Of a stretch of 64,000 nucleotides of DNA, positions 16,187 through 64,000 are shown piece by piece. The position numbers were made by a program, and so were the translations under genes. Location: the NCBI GenBank assembly GCA_045606105.1, contig JAZURI010000011.1:70836-134835 (forward strand). Reading direction: 5' to 3'. The notes beneath the pieces are model-generated. The model worked only from the letters and a program-made list of their open reading frames with translations, made no database searches and was not told the origin of the DNA. Position 1 is the first letter of the stretch, and each line of letters opens with the position of its first letter. This stretch comes from Spirochaetia bacterium (GTDB lineage: Bacteria; Spirochaetota; Spirochaetia; CADAEX01).

Positions 16187-16224
16187 CAGTTGTCAGTACA
16201 CGAATTAGATGATATATTTAAAAC

Positions 16225-17526
16225 ATGATTGAAAAAACACCCAAAAACAAAGATGTTACTTTTCAAAAAATATCTGAAATTCTGCTGAATCCCGAATATC
16301 GGGCAAATCTTGAGGAAATAGAAAAAGAATATCTTTATTGGGACAAGGCAAAGTTTTATAAGCCGCAGAAAATAAATGACCATGATTACTGGGCAGCAAT
16401 AAAATTTTCAAGAATAGGTGAATCTGTTTCATTTCATAATAAAGTTTTCAAATTCAGAATAACTAAATATATGCAGAAATATCTCCATGATTTTGATATG
16501 TATTCCGGAGGCACACTCCCGTCAGCTGATATAATCTCACAGAAAAAAAGGCAATATTATCTGCTTAGTTCTCTGATGGAAGAAGCTATTGCATCCAGCC
16601 AGATGGAGGGGGCAAATACCACAAGAAAAATCGCAAAAGATATGCTCAGAAAAAAATCAAAGCCATGCAACAAAGATCAACAGATGATTGTAAACAATTA
16701 TAACACAATAAGATTTTTGTCTGAAAACAAAGATAGGAGCCTTTCCCCAGAGTTCCTGTCTGAAATACACAAAAAAATTTCAGAGCACACACTTGAAAAT
16801 CCTTTGGATGAAGGAAATTTCAGAACTGATGACAATATAGTTGTCATGGATGCCCTTCAGGGAGAAATTGCACATACCCCGCCAATACATACAGAAATAA
16901 AACAATACATTACGGATTTATGTAATTTTGCCAATAATGATGATCAGTACATACATCCGGTGGTTAAAGCAATCATCATTCATTTTATGATTTCATATCT
17001 GCACCCGTTTACTGACGGAAACGGAAGGACAGCCCGTTCATTATTCTATTGGTATATGCTGAAAAAAGGATATTGGTTTACAGAATTTCTTTCCATCTCA
17101 AGGATTATTTACAAAAGTAAAAGGCAATATGAACGCTCTTTCTTATATGTAGAAAACGATGATATGGATTTAGGATATTTCATCAATTATAATATAAAAA
17201 TAATCGATAAATCACTTAATGATCTGAAAGAATACCTGAACAGAAAAACTCTGGAAGAAGAATCTCTTCTTAAGTTTAAAATCATTGATGATATAAACGA
17301 GAGACAGGCCGGAATCTTAAAAATTGCCTCTGAGAGACCATCTACAATTTTTATTGCAAAAGAGCTGGAAACCATATTTTCTGTTTCGGTAAAAACAATC
17401 AGAAACGACCTGAAAAAATTAACCGAAGCGGGTTTTCTGGATATTGTACCGTTAAATCTTCGTTTACAAGGATATGTAAGAAGTAAACATTTTGAAGAAA
17501 AAATAAAGTTCCTAAAAGAAAACTGA
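16225..17526 (+). CDS. Fic family protein (FIC domain plus C-terminal winged-helix)
   Basis: Canonical Fic motif HPFTDGNGRTAR; 433 aa. Confidence 0.85.
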   Translation: MIEKTPKNKDVTFQKISEILLNPEYRANLEEIEKEYLYWDKAKFYKPQKINDHDYWAAIKFSRIGESVSFHNKVFKFRITKYMQKYLHDFDMYSGGTLPSADIISQKKRQYYLLSSLMEEAIASSQMEGANTTRKIAKDMLRKKSKPCNKDQQMIVNNYNTIRFLSENKDRSLSPEFLSEIHKKISEHTLENPLDEGNFRTDDNIVVMDALQGEIAHTPPIHTEIKQYITDLCNFANNDDQYIHPVVKAIIIHFMISYLHPFTDGNGRTARSLFYWYMLKKGYWFTEFLSISRIIYKSKRQYERSFLYVENDDMDLGYFINYNIKIIDKSLNDLKEYLNRKTLEEESLLKFKIIDDINERQAGILKIASERPSTIFIAKELETIFSVSVKTIRNDLKKLTEAGFLDIVPLNLRLQGYVRSKHFEEKIKFLKEN

Positions 17527-42706: not shown

Positions 42707-43945
42707 ATGAATATTTTTATAAAAACAATAATAAAGAAAATTTGGAAATTCATTTTTAGAATCTGGAGATTTTTAAACAAAAAAGCAGAAGGACTAAATA
42801 GGAGAATTGATAAACCTAAAAGAATACTTCCCGAAACTGTTTTTATCGATAAAACATACAAAAATATTATTTCATCCCAAGGATTTTTATATAGCGGTTC
42901 TTCTACTTTGATAGGACTGTTTCAAGAATTTAATAATACAACAACATTAGGCATGCCTGATTATGTATATTCAGGAAAAAAAGTAAAGAAAGGAGCTGAA
43001 GTTCGTTTTTTTGCCGACTCAAATGTTTTTAACTTTATTGAAGCTTTTTACTCAGATAATGAAGTTTACCAAGATGCAGTTATAAAAAAATTTATTCGCT
43101 TTATAAACGTTGCATATTATAATAAAGGATTATACTCCTGGGATAAAAATCCTCTTGTTTATAATGAATTTTTTCTTAAGAATGCTTTAGATTTTCTTTT
43201 TGCCACATTGGAACTTGATGATAAATCAAAAATTCTGGCTGAAAAAAATCATCTTCCTCTCACCTGGAATTCAGCGGATGAAAAATATAAAGGCTATTCA
43301 TTTATGTTTGGAGAGGGCATTCATCAATATATATTTTATAAATATAAAAAAATAGAACCTAAGGTTTTTGAATTTCATGTAAAAAATTTCTTTTCTAATT
43401 TTTTTAATTCTGTACAAAGTAAAGATTATTTAATATGTGACCAATTACTAAACACTGTTAAACTTGATAAATTAGCAAAAATAAACCAATACCTAGATAC
43501 CCCTATTAAAACAATTAGTGTTATAAGGGATCCAAGAGATCAATATATTTCAGCTTTCAGACATAATGATACTTTTTATTTAAGTGATACATTAGACGGT
43601 TATGTAAACTTTTATTTATCAATGGTTCAACCTGTAATAAACAGTAACAACCCACATAGATTGGTACTCAGATTTGAAGATATTGTACTTAAATATGATG
43701 AATCAGTTCAAAAAATAATAGATTTTGTCGGCATAGATAAATCATGTCATATTGCCCCGAAATCAGTTTTCAATCCGGCATTATCGGTAGTTAATATAGG
43801 TGGATATAAAAAATTCCACAATCAGGATTTTATGAAACAAATTGAAGAGCGGTTACCTAACTTCTGTTATTATCCTGAAAAAGAAAATCTATCCGAAGAA
43901 GCATGGAAAATGCTTAAGGAAAATAATTTTAAAGAGCTGGAATAA
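42707..43945 (+). CDS. sulfotransferase-family protein (putative), in a strongly AT-rich insert
   Basis: 3'-phosphate-binding-like motif VIRDPRDQYISAF and a 5'-PSB-like YSGSSTL; the composition (Lys/Asn/Phe/Tyr-rich) matches the low G+C of the insert. Confidence 0.5.
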   Translation: MNIFIKTIIKKIWKFIFRIWRFLNKKAEGLNRRIDKPKRILPETVFIDKTYKNIISSQGFLYSGSSTLIGLFQEFNNTTTLGMPDYVYSGKKVKKGAEVRFFADSNVFNFIEAFYSDNEVYQDAVIKKFIRFINVAYYNKGLYSWDKNPLVYNEFFLKNALDFLFATLELDDKSKILAEKNHLPLTWNSADEKYKGYSFMFGEGIHQYIFYKYKKIEPKVFEFHVKNFFSNFFNSVQSKDYLICDQLLNTVKLDKLAKINQYLDTPIKTISVIRDPRDQYISAFRHNDTFYLSDTLDGYVNFYLSMVQPVINSNNPHRLVLRFEDIVLKYDESVQKIIDFVGIDKSCHIAPKSVFNPALSVVNIGGYKKFHNQDFMKQIEERLPNFCYYPEKENLSEEAWKMLKENNFKELE

Positions 43946-58713: not shown

Positions 58714-59106
58714 TCAGAACTCGACTGTTTCAGGAGCCTTGGCAAAGGAGCTGAAGGTGGCTACGCAGTTTTTCAGGTAGAATACCTGTGTGTTGCCGTC
58801 GTTCTCGTTATACATGCAGCGGAGCATAGGATAGGCATCCAGCATGGATTTGCGGGCTTCGAAGCGGTCATCCTCCACCAGAACGCAGGCAACACGGAGC
58901 CAGGTACCGTCGCAGAAGGCACAGAGCTCTGCCTTAGGGTTTGCAGCCAGCTGACGGCTGGTGGGCTTTATTTTTCCGGTCTGTATGTAGAGTTTTCCTT
59001 CAAATTCGTTGATTGTCCCGAAAGGGCGTACACGGGGCTGATCCCCCTCAACAGTAGCCAGATAATATGTTTCTGCTTTCTTCAAGAAATCGTAAACTCT
59101 TTTCAT
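58714..59106 (-). CDS. pyridoxamine 5'-phosphate oxidase-like FMN-binding protein
   Basis: Split-barrel signature (TYYLATVEGDQPRVRPFGT…GKLYIQT); 130 aa. Confidence 0.7.
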   Translation of the reverse strand: MKRVYDFLKKAETYYLATVEGDQPRVRPFGTINEFEGKLYIQTGKIKPTSRQLAANPKAELCAFCDGTWLRVACVLVEDDRFEARKSMLDAYPMLRCMYNENDGNTQVFYLKNCVATFSSFAKAPETVEF

Positions 59107-59120
59107 GTTATCTCCTTTTT

Positions 59121-59597
59121 TTATTCTGCCAGTTTTTTAAGGCTCTCTCCCGAAAAGCGGTAGGTGGTCCAGTCACTCATCTGCTCGGCTCCCAGGGAAA
59201 GGTAGAAATCGATGCTGGGCTTGTTCCAGTCAAGACACCACCACTCAAATCTTCCGCAGCCGCGCTCCAGTGCAATGCGGGCCAGTTCCCTGAGAATTCC
59301 CTTTCCGTGGCCGCGGCCTCTGTATTCAGGCAGGACATAAAGATCCTCCAGATAGATGCCGGCTTTTCCGAGAAATGTGGAGAAATTATGGAAAAACAGG
59401 GCAAAACCCACTTCCTTGCCATCCTCCATGGAGAAAATGACCTCAGCTATATGCTTTTCGAAAAGCCACTGACGGAGAATTTCCTTGTCGGCCACCACCA
59501 GATCGGACATTTTTTCGTACTCTGCCAGCTGCCGGATGAAGCTGAGAATCAGATCTGTATCTTTTTCCGTTGCAAAACGGTATTGGATTGTGTTCAT
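59121..59597 (-). CDS. GNAT family N-acetyltransferase
   Basis: Acetyl-CoA motif YRGRGHGKGIL; 158 aa. Confidence 0.8.
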   Translation of the reverse strand: MNTIQYRFATEKDTDLILSFIRQLAEYEKMSDLVVADKEILRQWLFEKHIAEVIFSMEDGKEVGFALFFHNFSTFLGKAGIYLEDLYVLPEYRGRGHGKGILRELARIALERGCGRFEWWCLDWNKPSIDFYLSLGAEQMSDWTTYRFSGESLKKLAE

Positions 59598-59676
59598 GTG
59601 GATATTATAGCACGGAATGGGAGGAATGGGGAAATTATTATTGTCAAATAGTAAAGACAGATGATAAAATTATAAT

Positions 59677-60399
59677 ATGTTAAATGATTTCTTTAATTGG
59701 TTGACCCTGAATACAAATCTTGCAAATTCATCAAAAGACCACTATAAAAATGGATTAAAATCCATATCAAAGGAAATGTTATCCAGAGATATAATTGATA
59801 AACCGTTGGAAGATATGTCTGTTCAAGAATTGGAAATCGCATATTTTTGCATCTTTCAAGACACTGTTTTTCTCGAAAAAAACAATCGGGGAAATAACAT
59901 GTACAGTAATTCATTAAAACATTATATGGCATTCGTAAAAGATGTTGCAAAAAATGATATAGAAGATAATTTTGTTAAATCAATCAAAAAAGATAATACT
60001 ATTTCAGAAACAGAAAAAGAAACCATTATACTGGCCAGATTGGGACAAGGAAAATTCAGAAAGCTGATATTAGAAAAATATAATTCCAGGTGTGTAATAT
60101 CAGGTATTTCCGACACCAGGCTTTTGATAGCCGGACACATTAAGCCTTGGGCAGTTTGCGATAACAATAACAGAATTGATCCCGAAAACGGTCTATTGTT
60201 CAATAACTTATATGACAAAATGTTTGATCTTGGAATAATGACATTTTCCGAAAAAGGGAAGATTCTTATTTCAAAAACATTCAAAGAAAAAAATATAAAG
60301 CTTATCGGCCTGGATACAGAACGTATTTATGACCTGCAATTGACCGATAAAATGAAACAAAATCTTGAATATCACAGAGATATTATATTTTTGAAGTAG
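59677..60399 (+). CDS. HNH endonuclease (COG3440-like predicted restriction endonuclease)
   Basis: C-terminal HNH-type motif CVISGISDTRLLIAGHIKPWAVCDNNNRIDPENGLLFNNLYDKMFDLG. Confidence 0.65.
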   Translation: MLNDFFNWLTLNTNLANSSKDHYKNGLKSISKEMLSRDIIDKPLEDMSVQELEIAYFCIFQDTVFLEKNNRGNNMYSNSLKHYMAFVKDVAKNDIEDNFVKSIKKDNTISETEKETIILARLGQGKFRKLILEKYNSRCVISGISDTRLLIAGHIKPWAVCDNNNRIDPENGLLFNNLYDKMFDLGIMTFSEKGKILISKTFKEKNIKLIGLDTERIYDLQLTDKMKQNLEYHRDIIFLK

Positions 60400-60400
60400 T

Positions 60401-61495
60401 TTATTTTAAGAATCTTATTTGCAGACATAATTTTAAATAATATTTTCCGTTTTCTTTAAAAATATTACCAAAATCATGCCTTGAAGTACTTGGTGTATCA
60501 AATTTTGTATTTTTAACCAAATAATCTTCAAATTCATTTCTGTTAAATAAGTGATAACAAAGAACTTCTCCATCTTCCCTGACTATAATATATCCGCCTG
60601 TTGCATCTGCTCTTCCGGTCCAAGGAGTCGAAGGCAACATACCTAAAGCACATTCGGAAATAAACTTTTTGAATTTATACTCATAAAAAGGCTGCCCGCT
60701 CTCAAGAGGGAATTTGCAAGGATTTTTTTTGGAAATATTTTTGAGCGATTCAGAAATTTTTTTAACACGGTGGGAATAATATTCCATAAGCATATAAGCA
60801 CAAATTTTAGGTAAGCTTCCGTCAAGCATTAGAAGATTGTTTTCAAAAATATCGTTATCAACTTTTATAAAGTTTAAACTACAGTCCTTTGATTTCAAAT
60901 AATCAAATCTGTCTTTAAATTTTTTAGAACAGGTGTTAAAACCATTTAACACTCCATCATCTATTTTTCCGACAACTTCATATAAAAAATTAGTTGTCTT
61001 ACCTGCATTGATAAGAGTGGAAGCTCCTCCTAATCTTGATTTAATACTGAAACCCTGGACATTTTCATATCCTGTATTAATATCGTGAATTCTTATAAAG
61101 ATATCAGCTTTATCTGTAGGTTTGGCTTTAATTGTGTCAACGGATATTTTTTGAAGAAATGCGTTGGTCGCTTCGGATGAAAAAGTTGTTTTTTTAGAGT
61201 TAATTATTTCTTTATATAAATTATTTGCACATCTTGTAAATTCCTCAGATTTTATAGATGCAAGTTCTGTTTTTTTGTCTACATTGAAAACTGTGATTAT
61301 TTTTTTATTTTGATTAATACGGAATTCAAGTTTTCCTATTGATTCATTTCTAACAATATTAATTATATTGTAAAAAGTACCATCTAGTTTATTTAAATCT
61401 TCATCTGCAGCGTACAATTTTCCTAATTCAAGTAAACGTAACAGCACATAAATTTCACTCCATTCACCTTTGTTATAGCCGGAAAGTTTTGGCAT
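60401..61495 (-). CDS. candidate type II restriction endonuclease (hypothetical protein downstream of the MTase)
   Basis: 364 aa, AT-rich, translationally coupled (23-nt overlap) to the C5-MTase gene; no recognisable catalytic motif confirmed by eye. Confidence 0.4.
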   Translation of the reverse strand: MPKLSGYNKGEWSEIYVLLRLLELGKLYAADEDLNKLDGTFYNIINIVRNESIGKLEFRINQNKKIITVFNVDKKTELASIKSEEFTRCANNLYKEIINSKKTTFSSEATNAFLQKISVDTIKAKPTDKADIFIRIHDINTGYENVQGFSIKSRLGGASTLINAGKTTNFLYEVVGKIDDGVLNGFNTCSKKFKDRFDYLKSKDCSLNFIKVDNDIFENNLLMLDGSLPKICAYMLMEYYSHRVKKISESLKNISKKNPCKFPLESGQPFYEYKFKKFISECALGMLPSTPWTGRADATGGYIIVREDGEVLCYHLFNRNEFEDYLVKNTKFDTPSTSRHDFGNIFKENGKYYLKLCLQIRFLK

Positions 61496-62492
61496 TATCT
61501 AGAACCTCCTTAATTCTTTCCGCAATTGCAGTAATTACACTAACGGTGACACTGTTTCCAAATTGTTTGTACAGGTGAGTATCTGCAAGAGGAAGAACAA
61601 AACTGTCAGGAAACCCCTGCAGTCTAGCCCATTCCCTCGGAGTCATTTTTCTGATTCCCTCTTTATTAATATTACCTTTTATATGAGTTACGGGAACAAG
61701 ATCCTTCTGTCTTTTGTCTATAACAAGATTTCTCTCTCTTCCCATACCACCGCAAACAATAGCCCCTGCTATATCACTCCAATCACGAATTTCAAATCCG
61801 AATCCATTACCTTTTGATTCGTGTCTTGCTTTGTGTCTGCGTAATGTTTCTACATACACTTCACTTAGATAATACTTCGCAGAAACAGCTTTTGCTTCTT
61901 TAATATCCCATAAACATTTAGAATTATCTGTTTTTTCAGGAAAAATAAAATTTTCCGGGGCAATATCAGCTCTGAATGCGACAATATAAATTCGTTCTCT
62001 GTTTTGAGGTACACCGAAATTTTTACTGTTTAGTACTTTATAAAAAACCTTATATCCCAAAGATTCAAAAGTATCATGTATAATTTTGAAAGTTCTTCCT
62101 TTATCATGAATGTATAAACCTTTAACATTTTCACAAAAAATTACCTTTGGCTTGTGGTAATCACAAATTCTTGCAACATCAAGAAAAAGATTCCCGCGAC
62201 ACATACCTTTGTAATTGTCTTCAAACCCCATACGTTGTCCTGCAAGACTGAATGCCTGACAAGGAAAACCGGCAAGACAAATATCAAATTCAGGAATATC
62301 TTTTTCTTCTATTTTGGTAATATCTCCCGCAATTTCAAATTCATCATTAAAGTTTGCTTTGTATGTTTTTTTTGCATTCTCATCCCATTCGCTGACAAAG
62401 ACCGTACTTATTTCATCCTTAAACGCACCGTCAAATCCCAAGCGAATTCCACCGATTCCCGCAAAAAGATCAATTGATTTATACTGATTCAT
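61473..62492 (-). CDS. DNA (cytosine-5)-methyltransferase
   Basis: Motif I DLFAGIGG, motif IV GFPCQAFS, motif VI ENVKGL, motif VIII QNRERIY, motif X FGNSV. Confidence 0.9.
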   Translation of the reverse strand: MNQYKSIDLFAGIGGIRLGFDGAFKDEISTVFVSEWDENAKKTYKANFNDEFEIAGDITKIEEKDIPEFDICLAGFPCQAFSLAGQRMGFEDNYKGMCRGNLFLDVARICDYHKPKVIFCENVKGLYIHDKGRTFKIIHDTFESLGYKVFYKVLNSKNFGVPQNRERIYIVAFRADIAPENFIFPEKTDNSKCLWDIKEAKAVSAKYYLSEVYVETLRRHKARHESKGNGFGFEIRDWSDIAGAIVCGGMGRERNLVIDKRQKDLVPVTHIKGNINKEGIRKMTPREWARLQGFPDSFVLPLADTHLYKQFGNSVTVSVITAIAERIKEVLDNAKTFRL

Positions 62493-62949
62493 TTGCTTTT
62501 ACCGCCATTTCAACTTTATCCGCACAAATGCTGATATTGTTTTTTATTTCTTTCCCCCAGAATCTAATAACCTGCCAACCTTCAGATTCCAGTTTTGATG
62601 TTACTTCAAAATCTCTTTTAATATTTCTTTCTATTTTAGGAATCCAAAAATCCTGATTTGATTTAAAATCATTTTTTCTGTTATCCCAATCATATCCATG
62701 CCAAAACTCACTATCGACAAAAACTGCTATTTTTTTTCTTAAAAAAACAATATCAGGCTTACCATATATTTTTCCGACATTTTTTCTATATCTAAGTCCC
62801 CTATTCCAGAGTTCTTTTCTTAATTTTAACTCTATTTCGGAATCTTTATTTTTCACCTGTTTCATATTAAAGTGAATTTGTTCTTTTGTTTTAGTCATTC
62901 TTTTTATCCGGAAATAACTTTCCAATTTAAAATTTATCATGAATTTCAT
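62479..62949 (-). CDS. vsr: very-short-patch-repair endonuclease
   Basis: Vsr signature (IVFLRKKIAVFVDSEFWHGY…WIPKIERNIKRD…GWQVIRFW); 14-nt overlap with the MTase gene. Confidence 0.85.
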   Translation of the reverse strand: MKFMINFKLESYFRIKRMTKTKEQIHFNMKQVKNKDSEIELKLRKELWNRGLRYRKNVGKIYGKPDIVFLRKKIAVFVDSEFWHGYDWDNRKNDFKSNQDFWIPKIERNIKRDFEVTSKLESEGWQVIRFWGKEIKNNISICADKVEMAVKANESV

Positions 62950-63024
62950 GAATTATAAACCACTTTCTATATCTTTTTTACCACATCCCATATCTCATGC
63001 AATGACACACTTCTAAAAATAAAT

Positions 63025-63059
63025 AAAAAAGACAGCCGAAGCTGTCCTTTTACCAATAT
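63025..63059 (-). terminator. intrinsic terminator hairpin, copy A
   Basis: On the minus strand GACAGCTTCGGCTGTC followed by TTTTTT; 35 bp identical to copy B. Confidence 0.5.
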
Positions 63060-63207
63060 CATTACAGACCTATGTTAAAATTTTCCCAATTTTTCAACAT
63101 AGATATTTTTTTCAAATTTTTGTCCACGTTATTTTTTCATTGACAAATTTTACCTTTTTCTGTCCATGTTATTCTAAGAAAAATCCTACTCCGTACACAC
63201 CGGCAAA

Positions 63208-63242
63208 AAAAAAGACAGCCGAAGCTGTCCTTTTACCAATAT
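63208..63242 (-). terminator. intrinsic terminator hairpin, copy B (downstream of the CoiA-like gene)
   Basis: Identical 35-bp element AAAAAAGACAGCCGAAGCTGTCCTTTTACCAATAT; on the minus strand a hairpin plus T-run immediately after the stop at 63254. Confidence 0.55.
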
Positions 63243-63253
63243 TTCACTTCCCA

Positions 63254-64000
63254 TCACCCTTTTCTTCTGCGGCGGGCGGGTTTTCTTTTTGCAGGTTTCT
63301 TGATTGCAGGGTTGTTTCTGCAGGATGGGCACACTTTTTCAAAGCTGTCCACTGTTATGCCGAACACGGAGATTCCTCCGGTATATCTGCTTCTGAAGCT
63401 TCTGCCGCAAAGGGCACATTCGGTGTCGGTTTCTCCCTCTTCCTTTTCCATGAGTCTGCAGCTGCTGTCCAGGCAGTAATCCACGCTGTACGGTTTTTCC
63501 AGTTTCTCTTCCACCCGGTCCAGATCCTTCAGATCCCAGAGCTTTATCTGTATGCAGGTTTCCTTGCTGTGTGGTCTGAAAAACAGTGCCTGCTCCTCCG
63601 GGGCATCGGTACAGATAATCTCTATTACCCCTATCCTGTTCCTGTTTATATCAAACAGTTCCACGGTTTCTGTCAGTTCCTTCACCGACGCCACCCGGTT
63701 CATCAGGTTCTTAGGGCCCCATTTGGCGCCGCATTCACGGCATTCCCAGCTTACTCCCAGCTCTCCCTTTTCCTTTATCCTGCTGTTCAGAAGGGCAGTA
63801 AGGCGTTTCTTGAACTCGCTGTGAAGAAAGGTTTCGCTTCCGCCGGCACAGCCGGTATCCTTCTTGTGGGCAAAATGCTTCTGTCTTTCGGGGCCTTCCC
63901 TGAGTATGAATTCCTGTCCGCATTCTACGCAACGGTAGTTTTTCCCCTTAAGGGCTTCTGAGATGGATACGATTTTTCCCTCGGAATTGAGGGCGTGCTG
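63254..64000 (-). CDS. CoiA-like zinc-ribbon protein (5' end outside the window)
   Basis: The reading frame stays open upstream of the ORF-track Met to the window edge; upstream part encodes YRCVECGQEFILREGPERQKHFAH (the C-x2-C…HFAH pattern of the CoiA family). Additional CxxC pairs follow, and the C-terminus is a basic tail. Confidence 0.5.
   Translation of the reverse strand, partial: QHALNSEGKIVSISEALKGKNYRCVECGQEFILREGPERQKHFAHKKDTGCAGGSETFLHSEFKKRLTALLNSRIKEKGELGVSWECRECGAKWGPKNLMNRVASVKELTETVELFDINRNRIGVIEIICTDAPEEQALFFRPHSKETCIQIKLWDLKDLDRVEEKLEKPYSVDYCLDSSCRLMEKEEGETDTECALCGRSFRSRYTGGISVFGITVDSFEKVCPSCRNNPAIKKPAKRKPARRRRKG

Follow-up and report, generated by a model that had tools for sequence, protein, structure and literature searches.

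Gene content and composition of the AT-rich stretch

The 64,000-nucleotide stretch of a Spirochaetia bacterium genome analysed here (positions 70,836 to 134,835 of contig JAZURI010000011.1, referred to below as the window) carries at 59598-63250 an AT-rich segment with restriction-type genes. Three of them overlap on the minus strand and encode, in order, a Vsr-type T:G mismatch endonuclease (62479-62898, 139 aa), a C5-cytosine DNA methyltransferase (C5-MTase; 61473-62492, 339 aa) with a HpaII-class variable region (ESKGNGFG), and a HpaII-family Type II restriction endonuclease (REase; 60401-61495, 364 aa). The fourth, on the plus strand and convergent with them, encodes a 240-aa HNH_2 nuclease (59677-60399). 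Our comparative analysis suggests that this operon on the minus strand (62898 to 60401) is very probably a HpaII-type Type IIP restriction-modification (R-M) cassette that was gained by horizontal transfer and is equipped with its own Vsr.

The G+C content over 59598-63250 amounts to 0.313 as opposed to 0.473 over the remainder of the window, where no segment of the same size falls below 0.388 (mean 0.470, standard deviation 0.025); the G+C curve, at ~0.49 outside, runs at 0.26-0.33 from about 59600 to about 63200. An earlier note on this DNA, prepared from the letters alone, had described this drop as well as the layout of the open reading frames (ORFs) with overlapping start and stop codons, and both descriptions hold (the overlaps are 23 nt between the MTase and REase genes and 14 nt between the vsr and MTase genes). 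None of the observations that it had named as contrary to its reading, such as a non-nuclease match for the 364-aa protein or a uniform composition, was made. Position 59597, taken there for the stop codon of a GNAT gene, is in fact the start codon of that gene, which runs on the minus strand.

A HpaII-type restriction-modification cassette

The 364-aa protein matches the RE_HpaII family (PF09561) over the entire profile (positions 1-359 out of 359; E 1.7e-129, 432.6 bits against a cut-off of 25) and also the PADLOC model REase_II (E 4e-93). The earlier note had assigned it to the position of the cognate REase, regarded it as a protein of unknown fold, and proposed a search with RE_HpaII and other hidden Markov models. 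With this search done, the assignment by position and the absence of a solved relative both stand, but the family is a known one, recognized at full length. Among 3009 homologues, the nearest one with a name, 'HpaII family restriction endonuclease [Ruminococcus bovis]', is 61% identical, and the proteobacterial and Bacteroidota members of the family are 43-48% identical to the window enzyme. Its putative PD-(D/E)XK fold is adopted from the literature, the RE_HpaII family having been placed in this superfamily by Steczkiewicz et al. (PMC3424549), and was not confirmed by structural search here: a sequence search found no solved relative in PDB, and Foldseek queried with the AlphaFold model (pLDDT 79) returned only non-significant matches (HinP1I, E 0.06; MspI, E 0.1).

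The 339-aa protein is a C5-MTase with canonical motifs, as had been claimed for it. It matches PF00145 end to end (E 3e-96) as well as TIGR00675, and all six motifs sought are visible in the translation (I, DLFAGIGG; IV, GFPCQAFS; VI, ENVKGL; VIII, QNRERIY; IX, REWARLQGFP; X, GNSV). M.HhaI aligns with its catalytic halves (E 3e-60), and Dcm (3lx6/3me5) aligns with the whole protein including the variable region (E 1e-49).

The Vsr assignment, likewise made in the earlier note, is confirmed by scores above the cut-off for both TIGR00632 (133 bits against 97.85) and PF03852 (E 3e-24, 85 bits against 27). The protein is matched by E. coli Vsr (1cw0, E 4e-13), and the equivalents of the catalytic Asp51 and His69 are kept (in GKPD and FWH, respectively). 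The source NCBI record gives a 156-aa form starting at 62949; the start is most likely at Met18 (62898, yielding 139 aa), since it is the annotated start on three other contigs and homologues align from residue 18-21 onwards. The structural zinc site of the E. coli type is not kept in the window protein, where the four ligand positions (which we take to be Cys66, His71, Cys73 and Cys117 in E. coli Vsr) read E, Y, W and K. This loss extends throughout the clade of cassette-linked Vsr proteins (window, L022-L101; L numbers denote the related loci and contigs compared), which share the motif F[CV]DSEFWHGYDW and retain the catalytic Asp and His. The Vsr encoded beside an 88%-identical homologue of the window HNH protein (L185) retains the zinc ligands (FVNGCFWHGHQGC). 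In the REBASE nomenclature, Vsr components of R-M systems bear the prefix 'V.' (PMC4081073).

For a survey of gene-order conservation, a single genome of each species was searched with an alignment of REase homologues, and 80 loci were returned. In 74 of these, an orthologous MTase (53-86% identical) is located directly upstream of the REase gene and on its strand, and the full Vsr-MTase-REase order is present in 46 out of the 71 loci with sufficient upstream sequence. These complete loci span Clostridia, Melainabacteria, some Bacteroidota and archaea of the order Methanomassiliicoccales, and the cassette of the window is an ordinary representative of this well-known type of system. The best relatives in this survey suggest an Oscillospirales-type gut bacterium, of Clostridia type, as its host. 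The average difference in G+C between cassette and flank over 67 related loci is just 0.022, so that low G+C is no general hallmark of such cassettes and the contrast seen in the window is specific to this host.

In the proposed scheme, the MTase would place 5-methylcytosine on the CCGG sites of the host, and the PF09561 endonuclease would cut incoming DNA whose sites are unmethylated. The presence of Vsr in the cassette would be explained by the deamination of 5-methylcytosine to T, which leaves a T:G mismatch. Vsr is expected to nick it on the 5' side of the T, upon which repair would restore the C, limiting the mutations that the methylase would otherwise cause. The overlapping vsr, MTase and REase genes travel together, and a terminator hairpin marks the upstream limit of this unit.

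In Clostridia (L022-L058; e.g. L034:7092-8048 and L024:1887-2837), HpaII-type cassettes often have an extended order in which a second C5-MTase (M2, as distinct from the HpaII-type M1) directly follows the REase. M2 is 34-40% identical and belongs to another class of variable region; it could serve as a second protective methylase or be part of another system. M2 is followed variously by an HNH gene, an ORF of 190 aa or one of 1106 aa, and is absent from the window.

Target site of the cassette

The characterised members of PF09561 are, as far as is known, isoschizomers recognizing CCGG. The earlier note had named the variable-region sequence ESKGNGFG as a mark of CCGG-class methylases. In our survey the corresponding motif, xxKG(N/H)GFG, tracks the partners of HpaII-family REases, being found in ~70 out of 80 such MTases, and KGNGFG is absent from the M2-type and other MTase classes examined; the link to CCGG itself is one that we infer. 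The target recognition domain (TRD) of the window MTase is 61-69% identical to those of its orthologues. Taken together, the REase family and the co-varying variable region of the MTase make CCGG a well-supported predicted specificity, and by analogy with M.HpaII it would be the inner C of this site that is methylated.

Several points limit this assignment. Both CCGG and inner-C methylation are predicted from family membership. Site counts are neutral for the choice of target, as CCGG is only mildly under-represented in host sequence (447 observed versus 545 expected, ratio 0.82), and the counts of CCGG, CCWGG and CTGG/CCAG in 60 kb reveal no informative avoidance. The alignment with Dcm, a CCWGG methylase, over the full length (E 1e-49, variable region included) means that, judged from the MTase alone, a related CC(N)GG target is possible. 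The cassette might accordingly recognize a variant such as CC(N)GG or CCWGG, or else a longer site that includes CCGG, and two further observations agree with this: the moderate identity of the REase (43-48%) to the proteobacterial and Bacteroidota family members, and the occurrence of the same TRD class in the 466-aa C5-MTases of DISARM-type operons. The latter enzymes (L010:7436-8836, L147) are 35-47% identical to the HpaII-type MTase in this region and read DKGYGFG. We nevertheless consider a target other than CCGG quite improbable in view of the full-length match of the REase to the HpaII family, the strict pairing of MTase and REase in 74 of 80 loci and the conserved KGNGFG motif.

Two independent modules at a strain-variable junction

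Edges of the modules were taken from strain comparison (blastn), which defines them more closely than the G+C curve does. Contigs with a GNAT protein 100% identical to that of the window were aligned at the DNA level and display six states at one junction. Next to the GNAT start codon lies a segment comprising the conserved GNAT promoter and the junction itself (59598-59632), within which homology to strains with other cargo (L003, L004 and L005) breaks at 59627. The arrangement of the window recurs in L001 and L009. In L007 the order is NUDIX paralogue - HNH - GNAT, and the HpaII cassette is absent; the stop codon of the NUDIX paralogue lies there 4 nt from the HNH stop codon, in the place held in the window by the REase stop codon (1 nt away). 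L004 has the order NUDIX paralogue - GNAT and still contains the 3'-terminal 26 nt of HNH (100% identical), which marks it as a deletion derivative rather than a virgin site. The cargo of L003 and L005 (a different 138-aa Vsr, a HATPase_c_3 fragment and a 325-aa gene; L003:172-588, L005:3-1948) looks like another Vsr-linked methylase system that replaces the HpaII cassette, and in L006 the cargo is a 544-aa gene. The HNH gene reappears at 99.9% identity next to a different left flank in L002. L182 and L184 contain the identical vsr and MTase genes in other surroundings: a short-chain dehydrogenase gene precedes them in L182, and unrelated sequence in L184.

The single island proposed in the earlier note is therefore not borne out. 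In sister strains the presence of the vsr-MTase-REase cassette does not go together with that of the HNH gene, and the two are separate modules sharing a hot spot, located between the GNAT gene and the gene next to it. The transfer of the cassette was recent, given its G+C contrast and the identity of its Vsr and MTase behind different flanks.

On the upstream side of the operon, the region with its putative promoter and 5' untranslated region (62899-63021, minus strand) moves with the cassette, being 97-99.9% identical in L182, L183 and L184 though the flanks differ. Homology with these three contigs stops at 63039-63057, inside a terminator-type hairpin (63022-63059, minus strand) that forms the upstream recombination boundary of the cassette. 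This hairpin is one copy of a 38-nt direct repeat; the other (63205-63242, minus strand) is the terminator of a 149-aa gene (63254-63703). The two copies are 97% identical and are the only ones in the window, with none expected by chance. The cassette, together with ~120 nt of its own upstream region, probably recombined in tail to tail with an already resident HNH gene, and the hairpin probably served as the recombination junction. A caveat to this reconstruction is that the right flank was read up to the end of the window at 64000, so that the extent of the inserted DNA was followed to that point.

An integrase-borne island was also considered and rejected, as neither a recombinase nor a tRNA is present: no recombinase was found among the ORFs of the region (ORF list and family search), no tRNA or other Rfam match within 59000-64000, and the sole repeat is the 38-nt hairpin doubled at one edge.

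Several minor features accompany these modules. The hairpin copies bound a 183-bp unit at 63022-63242, and the 145-nt spacer between them (63060-63204) contains AAC(A/G)TGGACA(G/A)AAAA twice; in L182 the slot of this spacer is filled by the short-chain dehydrogenase gene. A CCGG site occurs at 62908, 10 nt ahead of the Vsr start. The 149-aa product of the flanking gene is Cys-rich with a basic tail, is encoded at host-like G+C, and has neither a Pfam or NCBIfam family nor an exact copy on record. Two further patches of the window are AT-rich and probably also represent horizontally acquired genes: a Fic/DOC protein with a C-terminal helix-turn-helix (HTH) is encoded at 16222-17523 (G+C as low as 0.33) and a sulfotransferase-like protein at 42707-43942 (as low as 0.26).

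The HNH nuclease family

The convergent plus-strand gene had been described in the earlier note as encoding an HNH endonuclease, and this is substantiated by an HNH_2 domain (PF13391) at residues 139-190 (E 4e-9, 36.6 bits against a gathering score of 21), by the PADLOC HNH model (E 2.5e-34) and by two PADLOC 'Type II restriction enzyme' HNH models (E 3e-17 and 1e-13). The predicted catalytic residues H154, N171 and H233 do not vary among 59 homologues of 37-88% identity. According to the AlphaFold model (pLDDT 90.5), a helical domain (~1-72) is joined through two long linker helices (75-134) to the beta-beta-alpha HNH domain (135-240). VcaM4I is the only significant solved relative (PDB 6yex; phmmer E 6.5e-22, Foldseek 3.6e-10); TagI comes next in Foldseek at 3e-2, and both matches cover the nuclease part. 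The published plan of VcaM4I consists of a sensor, linker helices and an HNH dimer, and, when isolated, its HNH domain is toxic and shows no specificity (PMC7897488). Overall, the protein is predicted to be a second restriction-type nuclease of a VcaM4I-like build. An assignment to the phosphorothioate-dependent endonucleases (NF045808) was dismissed, as the score reached 47.9 bits against a cut-off of 180 and the alignment was confined to the nuclease part.

The N-terminal part is of a different kind. Its 105 residues are all-helical with weak similarity to Phage_int_SAM_5, and no EVE, SRA or PUA reader domain was found there. Searched alone, the N-domain has 131 matches among 1.84 billion representative proteins: stand-alone proteins of ~90 aa, the N-termini of McrB-type AAA_5 proteins, and the combinations Myb + N-domain + HNH_2 and N-domain + MrcB_N + HNH_2. 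Several of these matches score as phage-integrase SAM-like domains. This distribution identifies the N-domain as a portable, putatively DNA-binding module used by restriction-type proteins.

The gene itself is a discrete 0.77-kb module that is predicted to supply its own promoter. Its 5' end (59633-59676, plus strand) contains a promoter-like site (TTGTCA-18-TAAAAT at 59641-59670, TG-extended, 10 out of 12 matching), and homology begins exactly at 59633, 44 nt before the ATG, in three contexts (window/L007, L002 and L185). Neither the GNAT nor the HNH gene has a Shine-Dalgarno sequence, and in both a TATAAT hexamer precedes the ATG by 6-7 nt (59590-59680); their mRNAs are possibly leaderless.

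HNH contexts, collected by exact-protein look-ups and a metagenome scan, were grouped into 31 lineages (clusters at 90% identity, flanked left and right by 1.5 kb or more). A C5-MTase is encoded within three genes of HNH in 23 of them (74%) and directly adjoins it in 10, in 9 cases co-directionally; Vsr is found nearby in 11 lineages and a HpaII-family REase in 9. Tight MTase-HNH operons with gaps of 3-6 nt occur in L019 (followed by McrBC), L024 and L034. Written with V for Vsr, M for the MTase and R for the REase, the combinations with HpaII-type cassettes are V-M-R-M2-HNH, V-M-R-HNH-M2, R'-HNH-(HTH)-V-M-R, V-M-R-HNH and two convergent forms including that of the window. HNH genes are also found in a DISARM-like context, HNH-Vsr-MTase(466 aa)-DrmE_C-helicase, and in DEAD-MZB-(ResIII)-HNH, and the 88%-identical homologue of L185 follows a zinc-type Vsr in another C5 R-M system.

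Some loci (L123, L129, L152, L158 and L168) encode two HpaII-family REase paralogues, of which the one directly upstream of HNH is 28-34% identical to the window REase and the one ending the V-M-R series 38-40%. A Cro/C1-type HTH gene (PF13443, E 1.7e-19) is often located between HNH and Vsr or just upstream of HNH, and its small product resembles an R-M controller protein.

Mode of action of the HNH protein

The frequency of neighbouring methylases provides a yardstick, as DNA MTases lie within 3 kb of less than 6% of the PUA-HNH modification-dependent enzymes, a rarity that Lutz et al. took as evidence for modification dependence (PMC6765204). By this measure (74% versus <6%), the HNH family behaves like a methylation-sensitive enzyme, and we lean slightly, and tentatively, towards a nuclease that is protected by a C5-methylase, either the HpaII-type one here or an unlinked one. 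A simple Type II pairing is at odds with a number of observations: the window HNH gene has no dedicated MTase beside it, M1 being the sole DNA MTase detected in the 64 kb; strains with an intact HNH gene alone exist (L007, L002); the partner MTases of its relatives fall into several unrelated TRD classes; and 8 of the 31 lineages have no C5-MTase nearby.

A doubtful but still sizeable possibility is that the protein is a Type IV modification-dependent enzyme that complements the cassette, being directed against phage DNA with cytosines or adenines modified to escape HpaII, in which case it would tolerate C5mCGG and need no methylase of its own. The similarity of its nuclease domain to VcaM4I and TagI points in this direction, as do the sensor-linker-HNH layout shared with VcaM4I, the recurrence of the N-domain on McrB-type AAA_5 proteins and with MrcB_N-HNH, the intact solitary copies in L007 and L002, and the convergent orientation of the window gene with its own predicted promoter. 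On the other hand, closeness to VcaM4I is partly a sampling effect, since PDB contains no Type II HNH_2 structure. The HNH_2/COG3440 group includes the Type II enzymes AlwI, BbrI and HphI along with SRA-fused members (PMC5714182), and the nuclease domain thus cannot decide between Type II and Type IV. The N-domain, moreover, is not a base-flipping reader of the EVE, SRA or PUA kind, and the frequent C5-MTase neighbours, some of them in tight operons, are contrary to the pattern of PUA-HNH enzymes. Self-killing is a further risk for a 5-methylcytosine-dependent enzyme, given that McrA, an HNH enzyme of E. coli, restricts HpaII-modified DNA (C5mCGG) (PMC4081073). A McrA-like specificity was rejected for the window protein on this ground, as it would be self-lethal alongside the HpaII-class methylase with which the protein coexists.

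The gene might alternatively be a selfish, homing-like mobile element or an orphaned remnant of low activity without any functional coupling to its Vsr and C5-methylase neighbours, beside which it would have accumulated by a preference in insertion or by use of common hot spots. This would suit its discreteness, with the same 5' boundary in three unrelated contexts, its variable presence among near-identical strains (including the 26-nt remnant of L004), its changing position and orientation relative to cassettes in at least six arrangements, and the absence of a Shine-Dalgarno sequence. We regard it as rather unlikely, because the HNH_2/COG3440 members characterised so far are restriction rather than homing enzymes (PMC5714182), the L007 copy adjoins neither Vsr nor MTase, and neither terminal repeats nor a recombinase accompany the gene. 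The intact ORF and the catalytic residues invariant across 59 homologues argue for purifying selection.

Returning to the family as a whole, the stronger proposal that these 240-aa proteins constitute an uncharacterised class of restriction nucleases functionally tied to Vsr/C5-methylation modules seems to us unlikely. Were it correct, one HpaII-class methylase might guard two unrelated nucleases, or, alternatively, a mobile nuclease gene might home to such cassettes.

Implications

For genome annotation, the cassette implies a probable 5-methylcytosine methylome at CCGG and a restriction barrier, both of which would bear on transformation, engineering and mutation spectrum. The junction, which within one species holds HNH alone, an HNH remnant, the HpaII-type cassette or other Vsr-linked systems, offers a clean example of a defence hot spot. 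Some potential for discovery exists and is confined to the HNH family, with its recurrent linkage to Vsr and C5-methylases and its integrase-SAM-like N-domain. The nuclease of this family resembles modification-dependent enzymes and its neighbourhoods resemble those of methylation-sensitive ones; its mode of action therefore bears on how far a 'methylase nearby' can be trusted to classify an enzyme as Type II or Type IV.

Comparison with known systems

The closest parallel to the cassette is the HpaII system of Haemophilus parainfluenzae (R.HpaII/M.HpaII, C^CGG), to which it is likened by family. The REase belongs to the same Pfam family over its full length, and the similarity extends to an adjoining co-oriented C5-MTase with the KGNGFG signature and a Vsr in one unit; a vsr-like ORF was reportedly described beside the prototype system by Kulakauskas et al. 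in 1994. A difference is that the Vsr clade found here is devoid of the E. coli-type zinc site.

With the E. coli Dcm-Vsr pair (CCWGG) the cassette shares the combination of a C5-MTase and a T:G mismatch nuclease encoded by overlapping genes, the conserved Asp and His of Vsr, and an MTase that aligns with Dcm along its full length. In contrast to that pair, which has no cognate REase, a REase is present here and vsr comes first in the gene order; the window MTase scores 208 against a cut-off of 710 for the NCBIfam Dcm subfamily, and the four zinc ligands are replaced in its Vsr.

The HNH protein can be likened, by description, to AlwI, BbrI and HphI, with which it shares the His-Me finger group PF13391/COG3440 and the location of recognition outside the nuclease domain (PMC5714182). 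Its relatives occur in tight MTase-HNH operons, whereas the window copy has no dedicated adjoining methylase. With VcaM4I and TagI (EVE-HNH and SRA-HNH, respectively), it shares a homologous HNH_2 domain following linker helices and a reader-plus-nuclease design. The putative reader is, however, a helical integrase-SAM-like module of ~70 residues instead of a base-flipping domain of the PUA superfamily, and the neighbourhoods of this HNH family are rich in C5-MTases (74%), in contrast to less than 6% for the PUA-HNH enzymes.

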